From Escherichia coli (GTDB lineage Bacteria > Pseudomonadota > Gammaproteobacteria > Enterobacterales > Enterobacteriaceae): 64,000 nt of DNA. The stretch lies in NCBI RefSeq assembly GCF_002854065.1, contig NZ_CP024147.1; one strand, given 5' to 3'. Under the pieces are notes generated by a model. It ran no database searches, was not told the origin of the DNA, and saw nothing but the letters and a program-made list of their open reading frames with translations. Each line of letters begins with the position of its first letter. Position 1 is the stretch's first letter. Below, piece by piece: positions 1,370-19,575 of the stretch. A program made the position numbers and the translations under genes.

Positions 1370-3074
1370 TTCATCGTCAAATCGTGGCGAAGCGATTCTC
1401 GCCGCCCTGAAAACGCAGTTCCCCGGCGCGGTGCTGGATGAAGAGCGACAAACGCCTGAACAGGTCACCATTACGGTGAAAATCAATCTGCTGCCTGACG
1501 TTGTACAGTATCTTTATTATCAACATGATGGCTGGCTTCCGGTCCTGTTTGGCAACGACGAGCGGACACTTAACGGTCATTACGCGGTTTATTATGCCCT
1601 TTCTATGGAAGGGGCCGAAAAATGCTGGATCGTGGTGAAGGCACTGGTCGATGCCGACAGTCGGGAGTTTCCGTCAGTCACACCGCGCGTCCCTGCCGCG
1701 GTCTGGGGCGAGCGAGAAATTCGCGATATGTACGGGCTGATTCCGGTTGGCCTGCCGGATCAGCGTCGCCTGGTGTTGCCCGATGACTGGCCGGAAGATA
1801 TGCATCCGCTGCGCAAAGATGCGATGGATTATCGACTGCGCCCTGAACCGACGACTGATTCCGAAACGTATCCGTTTATCAATAAGGGCAACAGCGATGC
1901 GCGGGTGATCCCTGTCGGCCCGCTGCATATCACCTCCGATGAACCGGGTCACTTCCGCTTGTTTGTGGATGGCGAGCAAATTGTCGATGCTGATTACCGC
2001 CTGTTTTATGTCCATCGCGGCATGGAGAAACTGGCAGAAACGCGGATGGGCTACAACGAAGTGACCTTCTTATCGGACCGCGTGTGTGGGATTTGCGGTT
2101 TTGCCCACAGTGTGGCCTATACCAACTCGGTTGAAAATGCACTGAGGATTGAGGTGCCGCAACGAGCGCATACCATTCGCTCGATTCTGCTGGAAGTCGA
2201 ACGGTTACACAGTCATTTGCTCAACCTTGGCCTCTCCTGCCATTTTGTTGGTTTTGATACCGGCTTTATGCAATTTTTCCGCGTGCGGGAAAAGTCGATG
2301 ACAATGGCGGAATTGCTGACCGGGTCGCGTAAAACCTACGGTCTGAATCTGATTGGTGGTGTTCGCCGCGATATTCTCAAAGAGCAACGTCTGCAAACGC
2401 TGAAACTGGTGCGCGAGATGCGCGCCGACGTGTCGGAGCTGGTAGAAATGCTGCTTGCCACGCCGAATATGGAACAACGCACTCAGGGCATTGGCATTCT
2501 CGACCGACAAATCGCCCGTGATTATAGCCCTGTAGGGCCGCTGATCCGCGGCAGTGGTTTTGCCCGTGATTTGCGCTTTGATCACCCCTACGCCGACTAC
2601 GGCAATATTCCAAAAACACTGTTTACCTTCACCGGCGGCGATGTTTTCTCCCGCGTGATGGTCCGTGTCAAAGAGACGTTTGATTCGCTGGCAATGCTGG
2701 AATTTGCTCTCGACAACATGCCGGATACCCCACTGCTGACCGAAGGCTTTAGCTATAAACCTCACGCATTCGCGCTCGGCTTTGTTGAAGCGCCACGCGG
2801 TGAAGACGTGCACTGGAGCATGCTCGGTGATAACCAAAAATTGTTCCGCTGGCGCTGTCGTGCCGCCACCTACGCCAACTGGCCGGTGCTGCGTTACATG
2901 CTACGCGGCAATACCGTTTCTGACGCACCGCTGATTATCGGTAGCCTTGATCCCTGCTACTCCTGTACCGACCGTGTGACGCTGGTTGATGTGCGCAAGC
3001 GCCAGTCAAAAACCGTGCCGTATAAAGAGATCGAACGCTACGGCATTGATCGTAACCGTTCGCCGCTGAAGTAA
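1359..3074 (+). CDS. hyfG: Hydrogenase-4 large (NiFe) subunit HyfG
   Basis: ORF 1314..3074; likely GTG start at 1359 preceded by GGAG; N-terminal RxC...C and C-terminal DPCxxC Ni-Fe ligand motifs ([17 protein letters not shown]); start position uncertain. Confidence 0.85.
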
Positions 3075-3083
3075 GGACAGAAG

Positions 3084-3629
3084 ATGCTGAAGTTACTGAA
3101 AACTATTATGCGCGCCGGAACCGCGACGGTGAAATATCCCTTCGCGCCACTGGAGGTCAGCCCAGGCTTTCGCGGGAAACCGGACCTGATGCCCAGCCAA
3201 TGTATTGCCTGCGGTGCCTGCGCCTGTGCTTGTCCGGCAAATGCGCTGACTATCCAGACCGACGACCAGCAAAATTCGCGCACCTGGCAGCTCTATCTGG
3301 GGCGTTGTATTTACTGCGGACGTTGTGAAGAAGTGTGCCCGACCAGAGCCATCCAGCTTACCAATAACTTTGAACTGACCGTCACCAATAAAGCCGATCT
3401 CTATACCCGCGCGACGTTCCATCTACAACGTTGCAGCCGTTGCGAACGCCCGTTTGCCCCGCAAAAAACCGTCGCACTGGCTGCTGAATTGTTGGCACAG
3501 CAACAAAATGCGCCACAAAACCGCGAAATGTTGCGGGCGCAAGCGAGCGTCTGCCCGGAGTGCAAACAACGCGCGACGCTGATCAACGACGATACAGATG
3601 TACCGCTGGTGGCTAAGGAGCAGCTATGA
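3084..3629 (+). CDS. hyfH: Hydrogenase-4 ferredoxin-type subunit HyfH (2x[4Fe-4S])
   Basis: 181 aa with two CxxCxxCxxxCP motifs; SD AAGGA upstream. Confidence 0.9.
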
Positions 3630-4384
3630 GTCCAGTGCTTACACAACATGTCAGCCAGCCCATCACGCTAGACGAGCAAACGCAAAAGATGAAGCGGCAT
3701 TTGCTACAGGATATCCGTCGCTCAGCCTACGTTTATCGCGTCGATTGCGGCGGCTGCAACGCCTGTGAAATCGAAATTTTTGCCGCCATCACACCAGTAT
3801 TCGACGCAGAACGTTTTGGCATTAAGGTTGTTTCATCACCGCGTCACGCCGATATTTTGTTATTTACTGGCGCAGTCACCCGGGCGATGCGTATGCCTGC
3901 ACTTCGGGCGTATGAGTCTGCCCCCGATCATAAAATCTGTGTTTCCTACGGCGCGTGCGGTGTCGGCGGCGGTATTTTCCACGATCTCTACAGCGTCTGG
4001 GGCGGCAGCGACACCATTGTCCCCATTGATGTTTGGATCCCCGGCTGCCCGCCAACACCGGCCGCCACCATTCACGGTTTCGCCGTGGCGCTCGGTTTGC
4101 TGCAACAGAAGATTCACGCGGTGGATTATCGCGATCCCACCGGGGTGACTATGCAACCGCTGTGGCCGCAGATCCCGCCATCACAGCGTATCGCCGTTGA
4201 GCGAGAAGCGCGGCGGCTGGCGGGCTATCGTCAGGGGCGAGAAATTTGCGATCGTCTCCTGCGCCATTTAAGCGATGATCCTACAGGAAATCGGGTTAAC
4301 ACCTGGTTGCGCGAAGCCGACGATCCGCGTCTCAATAGTATCGTTCAGCAACTCTTTCGCGTACTCCGGGGGTTACATGACTGA
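3626..4384 (+). CDS. hyfI: Hydrogenase-4 small subunit HyfI (NuoB-like)
   Basis: 252 aa; start overlaps hyfH stop (ATGA); CGGC..GCPP motifs. Confidence 0.9.
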
Positions 4385-4790
4385 AGAGTGCGGGGAAATT
4401 GTTTTCTGGACGCTGCGAAAAAAGTTTGTCGCCAGTAGCGACGAGATGCCGGAACACAGCTCTCAGGTAATGTATTACTCACTGGCTATCGGTCATCACG
4501 TTGGCGTGATTGATTGTCTGAATGTCGCCTTCCGCTGCCCACTGACGGAATACGAAGATTGGCTTGCACTGGTCGAAGAGGAGCAAGCCCGACGTAAGAT
4601 GCTGGGGGTGATGACTTTTGGTGAGATTGTTATTGACACCAGCCACACCGCCCTGTTGACCCGGGCATTCGCGCCACTGGCGGATGACGCGACGTCTGTG
4701 TGGCAGGCGCGTAGCATTCAATTCATTCATCTGTTGGATGAAATTGTGCAGGAACCGGCCATCTATCTGATGGCCAGAAAAATTGCGTGA
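4377..4790 (+). CDS. hyfJ: Hydrogenase-4 component HyfJ (HycH-like maturation factor)
   Basis: ATG at 4377 overlapping hyfI stop gives 137 aa ([11 protein letters not shown]...); the longer 171 aa ORF is a read-through extension. Confidence 0.85.
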
Positions 4791-4819
4791 GAAGGATTTC
4801 TCATTAATAAGGACTGTTG

Positions 4820-6832
4820 ATGGCTATGTCAGACGAGGCGATGTTTGCCCCGCCACAAGGAATAACAATTGAAGCGGTAAACGGAATGCTCGCGGAGCGG
4901 TTAGCACAGAAACACGGCAAGGCGTCTTTATTACGCGCCTTCATCCCGCTGCCGCCGCCGTTCAGCCCGGTACAACTTATTGAACTGCATGTTCTCAAAA
5001 GCAACTTCTATTACCGCTACCATGATGATGGCAGCGATGTGACGGCAACAGTAGAGTATCAGGGCGAGATGGTCGATTATTCGCGTCACGCCGTCCTTCT
5101 CGGCAGTAGAGGAATGGCGGAGCTACGCTTTATACGTACCCACGGCAGCCGTTTTACTCCCCAGGATTGCACACTGTTTAACTGGCTGGCACGCATTATC
5201 ACCCCGGTTCTGCAATCATGGCTCAATGATGAAGAACAACAGGTGGCGCTGCGTTTGCTGAAGAAAGATTGCGATCATCATCGGGTACTGGTGGATATCA
5301 CTAATGCAGTGCTGTCACATCTTGATCTCGACGATCTGATCGCTGACGTCGCTCGTGAGATCCATCATTTTTTCGGTCTGGCTTCAGTCAGTATGGTACT
5401 GGGCGATCATCGAAAGAACGAGAAGTTCAGCCTGTGGTGCAGCGATCTTTCTGCCTCACATTGTGCGTGTCTGCCACGCAATATGCCTGGCGACAGTGTA
5501 TTGCTGACACAAACGCTACAAACCCGACAACCGACCTTGACGCACCGTGCAGACGATCTGTTTCTCTGGCAACGCGACCCGTTATTACACTTACTTGCAT
5601 CTAACGGCTGCGAATCTGCGCTCCTTATACCGCTTACCTTTGGCAACCATACACCGGGTGCATTGTTGCTGGCGCATACCTCTTCCACTCTCTTTAGTGA
5701 GGAAAACTGCCAGCTACTACAACACATAGCCGATCGCATCGCTATTGCCGTTGGCAATGCCGATGCCTGGCGTAGCATGACCGATTTGCAGGAAAGTTTG
5801 CAGCAAGAAAACCACCAGCTTAGCGAGCAGCTCCTTTCGAATCTGGGCGTCGGTGACATTATCTATCAAAGCCAGGCAATGGAAGACCTGCTCCAGCAGG
5901 TAGATATTGTGGCGAGGAGCGACAGTACGGTGTTGATTTGCGGTGAAACCGGAACTGGCAAAGAGGTGATCGCCAGAGCGATCCATCAACTTAGCCCGCG
6001 ACGCGACAAGCCGCTGGTCAAAATCAACTGCGCTGCCATCCCCGCCAGTCTTCTGGAAAGTGAGTTATTCGGTCATGACAAAGGGGCGTTTACTGGTGCG
6101 ATTAATACCCATCGTGGTCGTTTTGAAATTGCCGATGGCGGCACGTTGTTTCTCGATGAAATTGGCGATCTGCCGTTAGAACTTCAGCCTAAACTGCTGC
6201 GCGTATTGCAGGAGCGGGAGATTGAGCGTCTCGGCGGGAGTAGAACGATCCCGGTGAATGTCAGAGTCATTGCCGCCACCAACCGTGATTTGTGGCAAAT
6301 GGTTGAAGATCGCCAGTTTCGCAGCGATCTCTTTTATCGCCTGAATGTCTTCCCACTGGAATTGCCGCCGCTACGCGACCGTCCGGAAGATATCCCTCTT
6401 TTAGCAAAACATTTCACGCAAAAAATGGCGCGCCATATGAATCGCGCAATTGACGCCATCCCGACCGAGGCACTACGCCAGTTGATGTCGTGGGATTGGC
6501 CGGGCAACGTGCGCGAGCTGGAAAACGTGATTGAGCGGGCGGTACTGCTGACTCGCGGTAACAGTCTGAATTTACATCTAAATGTCCGACAAAGCCGTTT
6601 ACTGCCGACGCTAAATGAAGATTCAGCGCTTCGCAGTTCAATGGCGCAGTTGCTGCACCCGACGACGCCAGAGAATGACGAAGAAGAACGTCAGCGCATT
6701 GTTCAGGTATTGCGAGAAACCAATGGCATTGTTGCCGGGCCCCGTGGCGCGGCGACACGATTAGGGATGAAGCGCACCACGCTGCTGTCACGAATGCAGC
6801 GTCTGGGGATCTCGGTTCGCGAGGTGTTGTAA
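4820..6832 (+). CDS. hyfR: Sigma-54-dependent transcriptional activator HyfR (FhlA-like)
   Basis: 670 aa from second Met; AAA+ sigma-54 interaction motifs ([14 protein letters not shown]) and C-terminal HTH. Confidence 0.9.
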
Positions 6833-6853
6833 TCTGCTTTTGCAGGAGTATGC

Positions 6854-7702
6854 ATGAGAAATAAACTCTCTTTCGACTTGCAGTTGAGCGCCAGAAAAGC
6901 GGCAATCGCTGAACGGATTGCCGCCCATAAAATTGCCCGCAGTAAAGTGTCGGTCTTTTTAATGGCGATGTCCGCTGGCGTGTTTATGGCGATTGGATTT
7001 ACTTTTTACCTTTCCGTTATCGCCGATGCCCCGTCTTCACAGGCATTAACCCATCTGGTGGGCGGCCTTTGCTTTACACTCGGCTTTATTTTGCTGGCGG
7101 TTTGCGGCACCAGCCTGTTCACCTCGTCGGTAATGACGGTGATGGCAAAAAGTCGGGGCGTTATTAGTTGGCGAACTTGGCTGATTAACGCACTTCTGGT
7201 GGCCTGCGGTAATCTGGCAGGTATTGCCTGTTTCAGTTTGTTAATCTGGTTTTCCGGGCTGGTGATGAGTGAAAACGCGATGTGGGGAGTCGCGGTTTTA
7301 CACTGCGCCGAGGGCAAAATGCATCATACATTTACTGAATCTGTCAGCCTCGGCATTATGTGCAATCTGATGGTTTGCCTGGCGCTGTGGATGAGTTATT
7401 GCGGGCGTTCGTTATGCGACAAAATCGTCGCCATGATTTTGCCCATCACCCTGTTTGTCGCCAGTGGCTTTGAGCACTGTATCGCCAATTTGTTTGTGAT
7501 TCCGTTCGCCATTGCCATTCGCCATTTCGCCCCTACCTCCTTCTGGCAACTGGCGCACAGTAGCGCAGACAATTTTCCGGCACTGACGGTAAGCCATTTT
7601 ATTACCGCCAATCTGCTCCCGGTGATGCTGGGTAATATTATCGGCGGTGCAGTGCTGGTGAGTATGTGTTATCGGGCTATTTATTTACGTCAGGAATCCT
7701 GA
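6854..7702 (+). CDS. focB: Formate channel FocB (FNT family)
   Basis: 282 aa polytopic membrane protein directly after hyfR. Confidence 0.9.
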   Translation: MRNKLSFDLQLSARKAAIAERIAAHKIARSKVSVFLMAMSAGVFMAIGFTFYLSVIADAPSSQALTHLVGGLCFTLGFILLAVCGTSLFTSSVMTVMAKSRGVISWRTWLINALLVACGNLAGIACFSLLIWFSGLVMSENAMWGVAVLHCAEGKMHHTFTESVSLGIMCNLMVCLALWMSYCGRSLCDKIVAMILPITLFVASGFEHCIANLFVIPFAIAIRHFAPTSFWQLAHSSADNFPALTVSHFITANLLPVMLGNIIGGAVLVSMCYRAIYLRQES

Positions 7703-7739
7703 AAAATCAGCCCGGCGAAACAGTTCGTCGGGCTGAAGA

Positions 7740-8801
7740 TTATTCTTGCGCTATTTGCCCATCGGGCCAGGCGTGGATCACGGCTTTGATCAGCGTCGCC
7801 AGTGGAATGGCGAAGAATACGCCCCAGAATCCCCACAAACCACCGAAGATCACCACCGATAAAATAATCACCAGCGGATGCAGGTTAACCGCTTCGGAGA
7901 ACAACACCGGTACTAACAGGTTGCCGTCCAGCGCCTGAATAATCAGATACACTGCGAAGCAGCTCCAGAATTCCGTGCCTGCACCAAACTGGAATAGCGC
8001 CACGCCAACCACCGGAATGGTCACCACAAATGCGCCAATGTACGGAATAAGTACCGAGAAGCCGACCAGCACCGCCAGCAGCAGCGAATAGTTCAGCCCA
8101 AAGAGCAAGAACCCCAGCCAGGTGGCGATCCCCACCACGATCATCTCCAGCACTTTGCCGCGGATATAGTTGGTGATTTGTTGATTCATCTCCTTCCACA
8201 CCTGTCCTGCCAGTCCACGGTTACGCGGCAGCACCCGGCGAACGGCATTCAGCATCTGCTCTTTGTCTTTCAGCAGGAAGAAGACCATCAATGGCACCAG
8301 CACCAGATAGACAGCTATGGTCAGCAAACCGACCAGCGAGGCGAGGGAAATTTTCACCACCGAATCGCCCATGGTCAGCATCCGACTGCGCATATTTTCG
8401 GCCATTGCATCAATAATGCCCGCATCCATTAACGCCGGATAGCGGCGCGGCAACGTGGCGGCAAAGTCAGAAAGCTTATTGAGCATCCCCGGCATATCGC
8501 GGATTAAGTAGATGCCCTGTTGCCAGGCGATAGGCAGTACCACGAACGCCATCAGTAGCAATATACCGACAAAAACCACCAATACAATCGACGTCGCCCA
8601 GCGGCGGGAGCAGCCAATAGATTGCAGGCGCACGGTTGGCCATTCCAGCAAATAGGCCAGCACAATAGCCACCAGCAACGGAGCAAGCAGGCCACTAAAG
8701 AAAAAGATAATGCCAAATCCGGCAACTAAAATAACCAGCAAGGCAATCGCTTCCGGGTCGCTAAAACGGCGGCGATACCATTGCATCAACATTTCGAGCA
8801 T
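7740..8801 (-). CDS. perM: Putative permease PerM (YfgO; AI-2E transporter family)
   Basis: 353 aa membrane protein, convergent with focB. Confidence 0.85.
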   Translation of the reverse strand: MLEMLMQWYRRRFSDPEAIALLVILVAGFGIIFFFSGLLAPLLVAIVLAYLLEWPTVRLQSIGCSRRWATSIVLVVFVGILLLMAFVVLPIAWQQGIYLIRDMPGMLNKLSDFAATLPRRYPALMDAGIIDAMAENMRSRMLTMGDSVVKISLASLVGLLTIAVYLVLVPLMVFFLLKDKEQMLNAVRRVLPRNRGLAGQVWKEMNQQITNYIRGKVLEMIVVGIATWLGFLLFGLNYSLLLAVLVGFSVLIPYIGAFVVTIPVVGVALFQFGAGTEFWSCFAVYLIIQALDGNLLVPVLFSEAVNLHPLVIILSVVIFGGLWGFWGVFFAIPLATLIKAVIHAWPDGQIAQE

Positions 8802-8954
8802 AAAGACCTTCCCTGAACCTCAAGAGCGGGATTGCGATCCGCAATTGTATCGAAATGTCACAAAAAAGACTTCGCTTTTTATGACGGATTCAGGAAACTG
8901 AAAAGTCATTTGAGTGGGCTAATCTTCGCCGTTACACTCAAAGGCGGCGCGGTG

Positions 8955-8982
8955 GGAACGATATTTCACAGTATCGGTCAAA
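8955..8982 (+). promoter_or_regulatory. Sigma-E-type promoter upstream of bepA (-35 GGAACG, 16 nt spacer, -10 TCAAA)
   Basis: GGAAC at 8955-8959 and TCAAA at 8978-8982, about 30 nt upstream of the bepA ATG; bepA is a known sigma-E regulon member. Confidence 0.5.
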
Positions 8983-9013
8983 TGACTATCTTCAGAAATA
9001 CAGGATAGAGGTT

Positions 9014-10477
9014 ATGTTCAGGCAGTTGAAAAAAAACCTGGTTGCAACCCTCATTGCTGCTATGACCATTGGTCAGGTAGCCCCGGCGTTTGCCGACAGC
9101 GCAGACACCTTGCCGGATATGGGAACCTCCGCAGGAAGCACGCTTTCCATTGGTCAGGAAATGCAGATGGGCGACTATTATGTCCGCCAGTTACGCGGCA
9201 GCGCGCCGTTAATTAATGACCCGCTGTTAACGCAATATATTAATTCGCTGGGGATGCGTCTGGTTTCGCATGCCAATTCGGTTAAGACACCGTTTCATTT
9301 CTTTCTGATCAACAACGACGAAATTAACGCCTTTGCTTTCTTTGGCGGCAACGTGGTGCTGCACTCTGCCCTGTTCCGTTATTCCGATAACGAAAGTCAA
9401 CTGGCTTCAGTTATGGCGCACGAAATCTCCCACGTCACCCAACGTCACCTGGCGCGAGCGATGGAAGATCAGCAGCGCAGCGCGCCGCTGACCTGGGTCG
9501 GCGCGTTAGGTTCTATTTTACTGGCGATGGCCAGTCCGCAGGCGGGGATGGCGGCGCTGACCGGTACACTGGCGGGAACGCGCCAGGGGATGATCAGTTT
9601 CACCCAGCAAAATGAACAGGAAGCGGACCGCATTGGTATTCAGGTGCTGCAACGCTCAGGATTCGATCCGCAGGCGATGCCGACCTTCCTCGAAAAATTA
9701 CTCGATCAGGCGCGTTACTCCTCCCGTCCGCCGGAAATTTTATTGACTCACCCGTTGCCGGAAAGTCGTCTGGCAGATGCCCGCAACCGTGCTAATCAGA
9801 TGCGCCCGATGGTGGTGCAGTCGTCGGAAGATTTCTATCTGGCGAAAGCGCGCACACTGGGGATGTATAATTCCGGACGTAACCAGCTCACCAGTGATTT
9901 GCTGGATGAATGGGCGAAAGGAAACGTTCGTCAGCAACGAGCGGCGCAATATGGTCGTGCTTTACAGGCGATGGAAGCCAATAAATACGACGAGGCGCGA
10001 AAAACGCTGCAACCGTTACTGGCGGCAGAACCTGGCAACGCATGGTATCTCGATCTGGCTACCGATATCGATCTTGGGCAAAACAAAGCCAATGAGGCGA
10101 TCAATCGCCTGAAAAATGCCCGTGATTTGCGCACCAATCCGGTGTTGCAGCTCAACCTGGCAAACGCTTATCTGCATGGCGGTCAACCACAAGAAGCGGC
10201 CAATATTCTCAATCGCTACACTTTTAACAATAAAGATGACAGCAACGGCTGGGATTTACTGGCACAGGCGGAAGCCGCGCTAAATAACCGCGATCAGGAA
10301 CTGGCTGCGCGAGCAGAAGGTTATGCGCTCGCCGGGCGACTCGATCAGGCCATTTCGCTGTTGAGTAGCGCCAGTTCGCAGGTGAAATTAGGCAGCCTGC
10401 AACAAGCGCGTTACGATGCGCGCATCGACCAGTTGCGCCAGCTGCAGGAACGCTTTAAGCCTTATACCAAGATGTAA
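9014..10477 (+). CDS. bepA: Periplasmic beta-barrel assembly-enhancing protease BepA (YfgC), M48 metalloprotease with TPR domain
   Basis: 487 aa; signal peptide; HEISH zinc motif; TPR-like C-terminal region. Confidence 0.9.
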
Positions 10478-10497
10478 TTCGCATTAAAGGAAGAACA

Positions 10498-10857
10498 ATG
10501 ACCAAACAGGTAAAAATCTACCATAACCCACGCTGTTCAAAGAGCCGGGAAACGCTGAACCTGCTGAAAGAAAACGGCGTGGAGCCAGAAGTGGTGCTCT
10601 ACCTTGAGACACCCGCCGATGCGGCAACGCTGCGCGATTTGCTGAAAATGCTGGGGATGAATAGCGCCCGTGAATTGATGCGCCAGAAAGAGGATCTTTA
10701 TAAAGAACTGAACCTGGCTGACAGTTCGCTTAGCGAAGAGGCGCTGATTCAGGCAATGGTGGATAATCCGAAGCTAATGGAGCGCCCGATTGTGGTCGCG
10801 AATGGCAAAGCGCGGATTGGTCGTCCACCGGAGCAGGTACTGGAAATCGTGGGTTAA
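10498..10857 (+). CDS. yfgD: ArsC-family reductase-like protein YfgD
   Basis: 119 aa, N-terminal conserved Cys (NPRCSKSR). Confidence 0.85.
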   Translation: MTKQVKIYHNPRCSKSRETLNLLKENGVEPEVVLYLETPADAATLRDLLKMLGMNSARELMRQKEDLYKELNLADSSLSEEALIQAMVDNPKLMERPIVVANGKARIGRPPEQVLEIVG

Positions 10858-10886
10858 GATGTGCTCCATCGCTAGTTGAAGCACAT

Positions 10887-10981
10887 TGCCGGATGCGACG
10901 CTTGCCACGTCTTATCCGGCCTACGAATATTATGGATTAACTTCGCGTAGTTCGGATAAGGCGTTCGCGCCGCATCCGACA
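10887..10981. repeat. REP (repetitive extragenic palindrome) pair / BIME
   Basis: Inverted GCCGGATGCG...CTTATCCGGCCTAC-type REP units between yfgD and hda. Confidence 0.8.
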
Positions 10982-10994
10982 ATAAACACCTTAT

Positions 10995-11696
10995 CTACAA
11001 CTTCAGAATTTCTTTCACAAACGGAATGGTCAGCTTACGTTGCGCGGTAATCGACGCACGATCCAACTGATCCAACGTCATAAATAGCGTGCGCATTTCT
11101 CTGTCGAGCCGCTTCAGCAAGAAACGCCCAACATCTTCCGGCAGTTCAAAACCACGCAAACGCGCGCGTAACTGTAGCGCCTGCAACTTATCTTCATCAG
11201 AAAGTGGCTGCAATTTGTAGATCTGCCCCCAGTCGAGTCGCGACGCGAGATCCGGTAATCCCAGATTCAACTGCCGCGGTGGACGATCGCCGGTGATCAA
11301 CAACCGTGTTTTGCCCGATTCCAGAATTCGATTGTAGAGATCGAAAATCGCCATCTCCCACAACTCATCGCCTGCAATACACTCAATGTTGTCGATACAG
11401 ACCAGCGACAAATGCTCCATACCGTCGAGCACTTCCGGAACAAACCAGGTGCGTTTATCCAGCGGGACATAGCCCACCGCATCGCCACGCTGCGACAATT
11501 CCGCGCAAGCCGCGTGCAGCAGATGGCTGCGCCCCGCGCCTTCGCGTGCCCAGAGATAGATGTAACCGCTATGTTCCTGACGCAGCACGTTTTGCAGCGC
11601 GGCCAGTAAAGAGGAGTTATCCCCCGGCCAGAAACTTGCAAAGGTTTCGTCGTCAGGAAGATAAAGTGGCAAAGAGAGCTGTGCCGGTGTGTTCAG
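10995..11696 (-). CDS. hda: DnaA-inactivating protein Hda (RIDA factor)
   Basis: ATG-initiated ORF 10995..11741 (248 aa); the functional protein is reported to start at an internal CUG (here codon ending at 11696) giving 233 aa; AAA+ motifs present. Confidence 0.85.
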
Positions 11697-11790
11697 AGAT
11701 ACCTCAACCAGGATTTCACAAAATCGCGAGAAGTTTACCACAGAATCCCATGATGTTTGAACCGGGCAGCAACACTGCCCGGTCGGTACA

Positions 11791-13080
11791 TTATTTGTCT
11801 GTTATATCCGCGTCTTCTGCGTCCAGCACCACTTCTTCAGGGCGCAGCACACTGATCAGTTTGAAAATCAAACTTAAGCCGATACCGACGATGGTCGCCA
11901 GCGCCATACCTTTCAACTCCGCCGCGCCGATGTTTACCTTCGCGCCACTGACGCCGATGATCAAAATCACGGAAGTCAGGATCAGGTTCTGTGCTTTGTT
12001 GTAATCCACTTTCGATTCGATCAAAACACGAATACCGGAAGCACCGATGACACCATAAAGCAGCAGCGAAACGCCGCCCATTACCGGCAATGGGATCATC
12101 TGGATAGCGGCAGCCAGTTTACCGACGCAGGAAAGCAGGATAGCGAAAATCGCCGCCCCGCCGATAACCCAGGTACTGTAAACACGGGTGATCGCCATCA
12201 CGCCAATGTTTTCTCCGTAAGTGGTATTTGGCGTAGAGCCAAAGAAGCCGGAGATCACGGTCGACAGGCCGTTAGCAAACATCGAACGGTGCAGACCTGG
12301 ATCGCGCAGCAGATCTTTTTTGACGATATTAGCCGTTACTACCAGGTGCCCTACGTGTTCGGCAATAACCACTAACGCCGCTGGCAGAATAGTCAGAATG
12401 GCAAACCACTCGAAGCGCGGCGTATAGAGGGTTGGCAGCGCAAACCAGTGAGCATTAATAATCGGCGTGGTATCGACAATTCCCATTGCGAAAGAGAGCG
12501 CGTACCCCACCAGCACGCCAATTAAAATCGGGATAATTGCCATGAAACCACGGAACAGCACGGAACCTAAAACCGTGACCGCCAGGGTGGTAATAGAGAT
12601 GATGATGGTTTTGGAGTCTGGCGTTTGCCCTTCAGCCGGGAGCAAACCCGCCATACCGGCAGCTACGCCCGCCAGCTCCAGACCGATGACGGCAACGATT
12701 GCGCCCATTGCCGCAGGTGGAAACAGCACGTCCAGCCAGCCGGTCCCCGCTTTCTTCACGATAAAAGAAACAAGGCAGAACAGCACGCCGCACATAATAA
12801 AGCCGCCCAGCGCGACTTCATACCCCAACGGCAACAGTAGCAATACCGGTGAAATAAAGGCAAAGCTGGAACCAAGATAAGCCGGAATTTTCCCTTTACA
12901 GATGAAGAGATACAGCAGCGTTCCAATACCGTTAAATAACAGTACAGTCGCCGGGTTAATATGAAATAAGACGGGCACCAGGACGGTTGCACCAAACATG
13001 GCGAACAAATGTTGCAAACTAAGCGGGATTGTCTGTAAAAGTGGCGGTCTTTCACTCACCCCGATAGCACGGCGCGTCAT
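11791..13080 (-). CDS. uraA: Uracil:H+ symporter UraA
   Basis: 429 aa from [11 protein letters not shown]...; polytopic NCS2 family transporter. Confidence 0.9.
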
Positions 13081-13165
13081 AGTATTATCCTCTGTATTAT
13101 GTGTTATAGGCGCTTTACTCAAAAAAAAGCCGACTCTTAAAGTCGGCTTTAATTATTTTTATTCT

Positions 13166-13792
13166 TTATTTCGTACCAAAGATTTTGTCACCGGCATCGC
13201 CGAGGCCCGGAATAATGTATCCGTGCTCGTTCAGTCCCTGATCAATCGATGCGGTATACAGTTCGACGTCCGGGTGCGCTTTTTCCAGCGCAGCGATACC
13301 TTCTGGCGCAGCTACCAGCACCAGAACTTTGATGCTGCTGCAGCCCGCTTTTTTCAGCAGGTCGATGGTCGCGATAACGGAACCACCGGTTGCCAGCATT
13401 GGGTCAACGATCAGCGCCATACGCTCATCGATGTTAGAAACCAGTTTCTGGAAGTACGGTACCGGCTCCAGCGTTTCTTCATTACGGTACATACCGACAA
13501 CGCTGATGCGCGCGCTCGGAACGTTTTCCAGCACACCGTCCATCATCCCCAGACCCGCACGCAGAATTGGCACAACGGTAATTTTCTTACCTTTGATCTG
13601 GTCGATTTCTACCGGGCCGTTCCAGCCTTCGATAGTTACTTTTTCCGTTTCGAGGTCGGCGGTCGCTTCGTAAGTCAGCAGGCTACCCACTTCGGAAGCG
13701 AGTTCGCGAAAGCGCTTGGTGCTGATATCTTGCTCACGCATCAGTCCCAGCTTGTGTTTGACGAGTGGGTGTTTGACTTCCACGATCTTCAT
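13166..13792 (-). CDS. upp: Uracil phosphoribosyltransferase Upp
   Basis: 208 aa from [14 protein letters not shown]...; PRTase motif. Confidence 0.9.
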
Positions 13793-14036
13793 ACTCTTTC
13801 TCCTTTGAGGGGCAGCCACAAAAAAAATCGACGGATTATACCTCCTTTCTTCAAGGCGGCAATATTATTTTCGTTGACTTTAGTCAAAATGATAACGGTT
13901 TGAGATAAAGTTATTTTATATTCAAATGGTTATGAAAGAAGATTATTCCATCCGAAAACTAACCTTTGCCCTGGCACAAGTCTTCTTTCGCCGCGCGCCT
14001 GGGGAAAAGACGTGCAAAAAGGTTGTGTAAAGCAGT

Positions 14037-14052
14037 CTCGCAAACGTTTGCT
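14037..14052 (+). promoter_or_regulatory. PurR operator (PUR box) of the purMN operon
   Basis: tCGCAAACGTTTGCtt matches the 16 bp PurR palindrome consensus, about 65 bp upstream of the purM start. Confidence 0.7.
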
Positions 14053-14098
14053 TTCCCTGTTAGAATTGCGCCGAATTTTATTTTTCTACCGCAAGTAA

Positions 14099-15153
<1,055 letters not shown>

Positions 15154-15154
<1 letters not shown>

Positions 15155-15792
15155 TGAATATTGTGGTGCTTATTTCCGGCAACGGAAGTAATTTACAGGC
15201 AATTATTGACGCCTGTAAAACCAACAAAATTAAAGGCACCGTACGGGCAGTTTTCAGCAATAAGGCCGACGCGTTCGGCCTTGAACGCGCCCGCCAGGCG
15301 GGTATTGCAACGCATACGCTCATCGCCAGCGCGTTTGACAGTCGTGAAGCCTATGACCGGGAGTTGATTCATGAAATCGACATGTACGCACCCGATGTGG
15401 TCGTGCTGGCTGGTTTTATGCGCATTCTCAGCCCGGCGTTTGTCTCCCACTATGCCGGGCGTTTGCTGAACATTCACCCTTCTCTGCTGCCGAAATATCC
15501 CGGATTACACACCCATCGTCAGGCGCTGGAAAATGGCGATGAAGAGCACGGTACATCGGTGCATTTCGTCACCGATGAACTGGACGGTGGCCCGGTTATT
15601 TTACAGGCGAAAGTCCCGGTATTTGCTGGTGATACGGAAGATGACGTCACCGCCCGCGTGCAAACCCAGGAACACGCCATTTATCCACTGGTGATTAGCT
15701 GGTTTGCCGATGGTCGTCTGAAAATGCACGAAAACGCCGCGTGGCTGGATGGTCAACGTCTGCCGCCGCAGGGCTACGCTGCCGACGAGTAA
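15154..15792 (+). CDS. purN: Phosphoribosylglycinamide formyltransferase PurN
   Basis: 212 aa; start overlaps purM stop (TAATG). Confidence 0.9.
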
Positions 15793-15962
15793 TGCCCCGT
15801 AGTTAAAGCGCCAGCTCTGCCGCTGGCGTTTTTCAATTCACCTGTAAATCGCAAGCTCCAGCAGTTTTTTTCCCCCTTTTCTGGCATAGTTGGACATCTG
15901 CCAATATTGCTCGCCATAATATCCAGGCAGTGTCCCGTGAATAAAACGGAGTAAAAGTGGTA

Positions 15963-19575
<3,613 letters not shown>

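Follow-up and report, generated by a model that had tools for sequence, protein, structure and literature searches.

The CTG start codon of hda in an Escherichia coli chromosome region, its conservation, and the in-frame GTG upstream of it

Introduction

Hda of Escherichia coli stimulates the hydrolysis of DnaA-ATP together with the DNA-loaded beta clamp (regulatory inactivation of DnaA, RIDA), and the protein described is identical to the one encoded at the locus analyzed here (PMC5397184). In its statement on hda, EcoGene 3.0 starts the gene at CTG, citing Su'etsugu et al. 2008 and the N-terminal determination reported there. After hda, yfjD is the second gene of E. coli K-12 whose CTG start has been verified; its CTG was predicted from conservation and inspection of the ribosome-binding site (EcoGene 3.0). 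In yfjD as in hda, the canonical start annotated previously proved wrong (EcoGene 3.0). Unlike in hda, the mis-annotated start lay downstream in yfjD (TTG at codon 9) and not upstream, and the two genes encode unrelated proteins. Hda of Shewanella (PDB 3BOS) and HdaA of Caulobacter belong to the same family as E. coli Hda and share its layout, with the clamp motif in the first few residues followed by the AAA+ domain. Outside the Enterobacterales, Hda and HdaA have been called with canonical starts, unlike the CUG of hda.

The AUU start of infC, the gene of IF3, limits its expression within a demonstrated autoregulatory loop, in which IF3 discriminates against non-canonical starts. The AUU of infC and the CUG of hda are both weak, conserved, non-canonical starts of essential or near-essential regulators; to our knowledge, no feedback like that of infC has been shown for hda. 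Su'etsugu et al. in 2008 are said to have found that hda is translated from a CUG downstream of the annotated start and that correctly started Hda is highly active, and reportedly considered that the CUG start may limit a cell to some 100 molecules of Hda.

The locus analyzed here lies on the minus strand of a stretch of E. coli DNA of 64,000 nucleotides (contig NZ_CP024147.1), referred to as the window. It carried the same gene as E. coli K-12 (b2496, NP_416991.2), with the same CTG, Shine-Dalgarno sequence (SD), promoter and transcription start site (TSS), and nothing of substance differed. The CUG start of hda is already known from curated E. coli annotation and from the literature. What is added here is corroboration, not discovery: the GTG that opens the longest reading frame is part of the probable promoter and lies outside the mapped transcript, and neither CUG nor its SD varies across the order. 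The text of the Ribo-RET preprint, PIRT-seq, and the Salmonella riboproteogenomics paper and supplements contained nothing on hda, and reviews covering HdaA and the DnaA cycle were silent on the start codon.

Materials and Methods

The comparative set consisted of 80 Enterobacteriaceae loci from species-representative genomes (92-100% protein identity) plus the window, 81 sequences in total. The 80 distinct upstream regions were aligned with MAFFT, and entropy was calculated by column. The Hda family was defined by the NCBIfam equivalog models NF005982 and TIGR03420, and by Pfam PF00308 plus PF22688. The Edwardsiella entry (P0043) was a protein entry without an encoding contig on record. Window positions were converted to MG1655 coordinates by adding 2,607,080. 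The consensus promoter scan required 9 of 12 hexamer matches and left the TG extension unscored.

Results and Discussion

Identity of the gene and its reading frame

Among 5,426 complete E. coli genomes, 5,425 carried the 1-kb region with hda (at least 95% identity), annotated as "hda: DnaA inactivator Hda" and flanked by uraA and arsC/yfgD. The hda region of the window had 100% identity to strain 100416. RefSeq/PGAP placed hda at window 11696..10995 (233 aa), both in a 100%-identical strain (locus 1705 corresponding to window 11696) and in MG1655 (b2496, complement 2,618,075-2,618,776, 233 aa, NP_416991.2). Between the window and MG1655 there was no indel and there were 4 SNPs over 10900-11999, with zero differences over 11690-11800; CTG fell at 2,618,776 and GTG at 2,618,821 of MG1655. 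A 50-mer over the GTG (11726-11775) had no annotated feature above it in the E. coli genomes listed (about 5,400).

Compared position by position with MG1655 over 2921-17900 (about 15 kb), the window had 1,692 mismatches and is not K-12 MG1655. Real divergence, an indel offset on the hyf/focB side further upstream, or a combination of the two accounts for these mismatches.

In the profile search, Hda scored 476.6 bits with NF005982 (cut-off 268) and 281.4 bits with TIGR03420 (cut-off 194.8). The features of the reading frame, all on the minus strand, were as follows.

11741 to 10995, minus strand: longest hda open reading frame, 248 codons plus a TAG stop, opened by GTG
11696 to 10995, minus strand: hda coding sequence as used, from the CTG start (11696-11694) to the TAG stop (10997-10995), encoding the 233-aa DnaA inactivator Hda
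11696 to 11694, minus strand: CTG (CUG) initiation codon of hda, based on conservation and the EcoGene 3.0 statement
11741 to 11739, minus strand: GTG opening the longest frame (old 248-aa annotation), not a start codon; its last two bases form the TG of an extended -10 element
11738 to 11697, minus strand: the other 14 codons of the supposed N-terminal extension, which are promoter and leader DNA and do not code for protein

The preliminary description had placed a CTG at 11694-11696 with a run of 13 residues matching Hda after it, and both were borne out by the window sequence: the CTG was followed by AAC ACA CCG GCA CAG CTC TCT TTG CCA CTT TAT CTT CCT. The frame also reached beyond the CTG as described, beginning exactly 15 codons upstream of it. 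The codon at 11741-11739, described as ATG, reads GTG. It was preceded by GGGA 4 nt upstream and by no convincing SD.

The sole ATG nearby (11751-11749) is in a different frame from hda and opens an 11-codon reading frame (11716-11751, minus strand; ATG GGA TTC TGT GGT AAA CTT CTC GCG ATT TTG TGA) that overlaps the hda promoter. A leader peptide at 11751-11716 was rejected because the ATG columns were variable among Enterobacteriaceae and because the frame opens before the hda TSS; most probably this reading frame arose by chance.

Promoter, transcription start and leader

The transcription features of hda, on the minus strand, were as follows.

11740 to 11732, minus strand: extended -10 element TGgTAAACT, with TG at 11740-11739 and the hexamer TAAACT at 11737-11732
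11725, minus strand: hda transcription start G, by SMRT-Cappable-seq (±1 nt from the coordinate convention)
11725 to 11697, minus strand: 5' untranslated leader of the monocistronic hda mRNA, 29 nt from the TSS to CTG, carrying the SD

The TG, TA and ACT columns of TGnTAAACT were invariant in the 80 distinct sequences, and the n position was fully variable (entropy 1.95). Because invariant TG, TA and ACT surround a maximally variable n, these columns read as an extended -10 element rather than as codons. In Yersinia, Erwinia, Dickeya, Proteus and Xenorhabdus, the form TGnTAnnnT could likewise be seen some 40 nt before the CTG. The element predicts a start 7 nt past the hexamer, at G11725, a nearly invariant base (entropy 0.1). 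In MG1655, transcription of the monocistronic operon b2496 starts at 2,618,805, reverse strand (SMRT-Cappable-seq; Yan et al. 2018, PMC6131387, Supplementary Data 2). This TSS corresponds to window 11725, which is the 7th base after T11732 of the hexamer and 16 nt downstream of the GTG. From motif and TSS together, TGnTAAACT is inferred to be a functional sigma-70 extended -10 promoter of hda.

The extended -10 element takes its TG from the last two bases of the GTG at 11741-11739. Since transcription starts at 11725, past the GTG, this codon is absent from the hda-specific mRNA. With the upstream "start codon" being part of the promoter, mutating the GTG as a test of start use would alter transcription and not translation.

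A -35 candidate, TTCAAA (11761-11756), matched at 4 of 6 positions with an 18-nt spacer, and only its TTC was conserved. In promoters of the extended -10 type, a good -35 element is often missing. The consensus promoter scan gave no hit over 11500-12300; it was silent at hda because TTCAAA and TAAACT together give only 8 of 12 matches and the TG extension was ignored. A search of the literature found no paper on the hda promoter, and the supplement text of Cappable-seq 2016 held no position near 2,6188xx.

The leader and early coding region folded no better than shuffled sequences (z = +1.41). A structured leader regulating the use of CUG was rejected on this result. An unstructured initiation region is in keeping with a weak start codon, whose use relies on access to the site.

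Terminator of uraA and transcripts reading into hda

The gene upstream ends in a hairpin that lies immediately before the hda promoter.

11784 to 11760, minus strand: uraA terminator hairpin with an 11-bp stem and a 3-nt loop (-22.2 kcal/mol, z = -5.39)

The upp-uraA transcripts have a termination site at 2,618,838, or window position of about 11758 (SMRT-Cappable-seq, PMC6131387), just past the 11784-11760 hairpin. The 3' arm of the hairpin, GCCCGGTTC, was nearly invariant in the MAFFT alignment. No U-tract followed the hairpin (11756-11784, minus strand). As GCCCGGTTC overlaps the place expected for the -35 element of hda, the uraA terminator and the hda promoter appear to share sequence. 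Judged by SMRT-Cappable-seq counts, the terminator was leaky in one growth condition, with 95 reads passing it vs. 37 ending there, and 8 vs. 30 in the other condition (PMC6131387).

Read-through transcripts bear on whether the GTG might be used in addition to CUG, with CUG giving the main 233-aa Hda and GUG on upp-uraA-hda read-through RNA giving a minor 248-aa isoform. An operon b2498|b2497|b2496 from the upp TSS is listed, whose transcripts contain the GTG (PMC6131387), and the counts above agree with frequent passage of the terminator; GUG is also an intrinsically far stronger start than CUG (bioRxiv 10.1101/063800). However, most read-through RNAs do not cover hda, their median 3' extension beyond the uraA terminator being only about 190-250 nt (PMC6131387), and the GUG lacks a good SD. 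The extension was unconserved even within Escherichia, where one locus (L003) carried a 1-nt insertion that shifts the GTG out of frame, so that any 248-aa isoform would be without conserved function. N-terminally extended Hda aggregates and is poorly active, which also counts against dual initiation. On balance, a minor product from GUG next to the CUG-started Hda is very unlikely.

Conservation of CTG and the Shine-Dalgarno sequence

For the comparative data, one further feature is needed.

11705 to 11701, minus strand: SD GAGGT, ending 4 nt upstream of CTG, with its GAGG core 5 nt before CTG

CTG is the commonest codon of E. coli, and a single CTG is unremarkable by itself. That of hda stands above chance because of its context, namely its invariance, the GAGGT upstream of it, and a coding periodicity that starts only at CTG. 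It was invariant in 81/81 Enterobacteriaceae and in 5/5 further Enterobacterales (86/86). In the 81 sequences, codon 1 was the sole hda leucine codon of 43 without synonymous change; the other 42 used 2 to 6 different codons each. Only 3 of 224 degenerate codons were invariant at the nucleotide level, codons 1 and 4 being two of them.

GAGGT was present in all 86 sequences, at an identical spacing to CTG in 85. In the MAFFT alignment, the columns of GAGGT (11705-11701) and of CTG-AA (11696-11692) had zero entropy, and T11697 was nearly invariant (entropy 0.17). The codon-position periodicity of substitutions began only at CTG, with indels and no periodicity upstream.

No in-frame ATG, GTG or TTG occurred between the nearest upstream stop and CTG in 46/81 loci, and at most 6 sense codons separated that stop from CTG in 28/81. 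The 15-codon extension was broken by stops or indels, with the frame closed before position -15, in 60/81. Only 8/81 had an open frame that began with a canonical codon at -15.

These counts weigh on the reading of Hda as a 248-aa product from the GTG at 11741, with the CTG as an ordinary internal leucine codon. The reading has in its favor that the frame is the longest, that GTG is a canonical start, and that the 248-aa form is common among automatically called proteins (P0002 stands for 3,510 member sequences). Against it, the mapped hda TSS comes after the GTG, this codon has nothing better than GGGA in the place of an SD, the extension is interrupted in 60/81 loci, and coding periodicity is absent upstream of CTG. 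Curated annotation and EcoGene 3.0 give CTG, and neither the family profiles nor the solved structure cover the extension: it lies outside TIGR03420, only its last 2 residues fall inside NF005982, and the Hda chain of PDB 5X06 is a tag plus MNTPAQL..., identical to the window translation from CTG on and without the extension. A GTG start for the main Hda product is already refuted, and the 248-aa reading as a whole is hardly credible. The preliminary description had called use of the upstream start improbable, and this stands on the position of the codon upstream of the mapped TSS and on the lack of conservation of the extension; the part of the claim that did not hold is the name of the codon, which was given as ATG and is GTG.

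Initiation at CUG also fits the more distant Enterobacterales. Yersinia, Erwinia, Dickeya, Proteus and Xenorhabdus kept GAG-GTG-NTT-CTG-AAY, with the same GAGG core 5 nt before CTG. Two outgroup Hda loci (63% and 52% identity) start with GTG, and CTG is absent from the corresponding position; on these sequences, the CUG start appears to be confined to the Enterobacterales in the sampled set.

In the same five genera (L082-L085, L088) the SD reads GAGGTG, a longer match to the anti-SD, and gene callers take the GTG two codons before CTG as the start (MLLNTP..., 235 aa); NCBI holds both forms. Its location within the SD makes it improbable, judging from the sequence, that this GTG is the real start. 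In over-extended gene calls, the SD GAGGT reads as "EV".

Position of the clamp-binding motif

The N-terminal landmark of Hda lies shortly after the CTG.

11681 to 11664, minus strand: beta-clamp-binding motif QLSLPL, codons 6-11, numbered 6-QLSLPL-11 in PMC5397184

The paper on the Hda-clamp crystal structure numbers Q6-L11, E17, W23, G55-R56-S57 and R153 (PMC5397184). These numbers fit the window translation only if residues are counted from CTG, and the AAA+ nucleotide-binding loop (G55-R56-S57) and the box VII arginine finger (R153) were present at exactly those positions of the CTG-numbered translation. The Q of the clamp motif is residue 6 when counted from CTG and residue 21 when counted from GTG (motif at 21-26). 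Among distant homologues (representatives of clusters at 50% identity that cover the entire Hda family), Q was mostly at residues 2-9, with a mode of 4. The CTG form matches the family norm, since Q6 is within this range and Q21 is outside it.

Every canonical in-frame codon downstream of CTG is codon 9 or later, and its use would remove the clamp-binding motif. A start at the first of them (TTG, codon 9, 11672-11670) is in frame and corresponds to 225-aa forms in public sets (P0063 and P0104), but it would lose QLSLPL, which occupies the clamp cleft in the crystal structure (PMC5397184), codon 9 is TTG in only 43/81 loci (CTG or TTA in the others), and no SD precedes it, which leaves this start a negligible chance.

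Proposed expression of hda

The best explanation of the locus as a whole, with a probability of about 95%, combines an own extended -10 promoter, a 29-nt leader, GAGGT, a CUG start and a 233-aa Hda, with the GTG as a coincidence of the promoter. Under this reading, hda would be transcribed from its own sigma-70 extended -10 promoter (11740-11732), just past the uraA terminator, and a start at G11725 would give the 29-nt leader. Ribosomes would then bind at GAGGT (11705-11701) and initiate with fMet-tRNA at CUG (11696-11694). [quoted passage not shown] The GTG at 11741 would be a coincidence of the promoter, its TG being that of the extended -10 element. The claim of the preliminary description that functional Hda starts at CUG gained support from RefSeq, EcoGene 3.0, the structure numbering, the comparative sequence, the TSS and the position of the clamp motif.

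In E. coli reporters, initiation at CUG was about 1-2% of that at AUG, and GUG was far stronger than CUG (bioRxiv 10.1101/063800). In the 86 Enterobacterales, the CTG of hda was never replaced by TTG, ATG or GTG, each of which is a single mutation away. This strict retention of CTG agrees with selection for a weak start and suggests that CUG may be kept to hold Hda at a low level. Su'etsugu et al. in 2008 reportedly had already proposed that CUG keeps Hda scarce. The invariance across the order is a small addition in support of that published idea.

A further step would be that CUG is actively maintained across the Enterobacterales as a limiter of Hda dosage, and that the synthesis of Hda is sensitive to the level or activity of IF3. 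This rests on the analogy with infC and is put forward tentatively, as an unlikely rather than a probable extension. If true, the control of replication initiation would be coupled to the state of the translation machinery, as with the AUU of infC. The start codon of hda matters mainly for correct annotation, and little beyond, as its CUG is already in the curated annotation and the literature.

Hda N-termini in databases and other observations

In the public sets (P0001-P0120), Hda orthologues were present at 233, 235, 238, 241, 244, 248 and 258 aa, together with 225-aa forms, which begin at codon 9 and are missing the clamp-binding motif. Izhakiella australiensis was listed with two versions of Hda, 233 and 235 aa long, with a longest contig of 147,420 bases for each. 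The N-termini scatter because gene callers cannot call CTG; callers limited to ATG, GTG or TTG still yield wrong Hda N-termini in public databases.

The 258-aa E. coli Hda variant (P0001) has an internal tandem duplication of 25 residues, with TS replacing TG where the two copies meet. Within the repeated segment lies the box VII arginine finger. Either a true variant or an error of assembly could account for the duplication.

Downstream of the hda stop, at about 10880-10990 and up to arsC/yfgD, GC-rich imperfect inverted repeats of REP/BIME type were seen by eye (GTCGGATGCGGCGCGAACGCCTTATCCGA ... TAGGCCGGATAAGACGTGGCAAGCGTCGCATCCGGCA); they fill the intergenic space between hda and arsC/yfgD.
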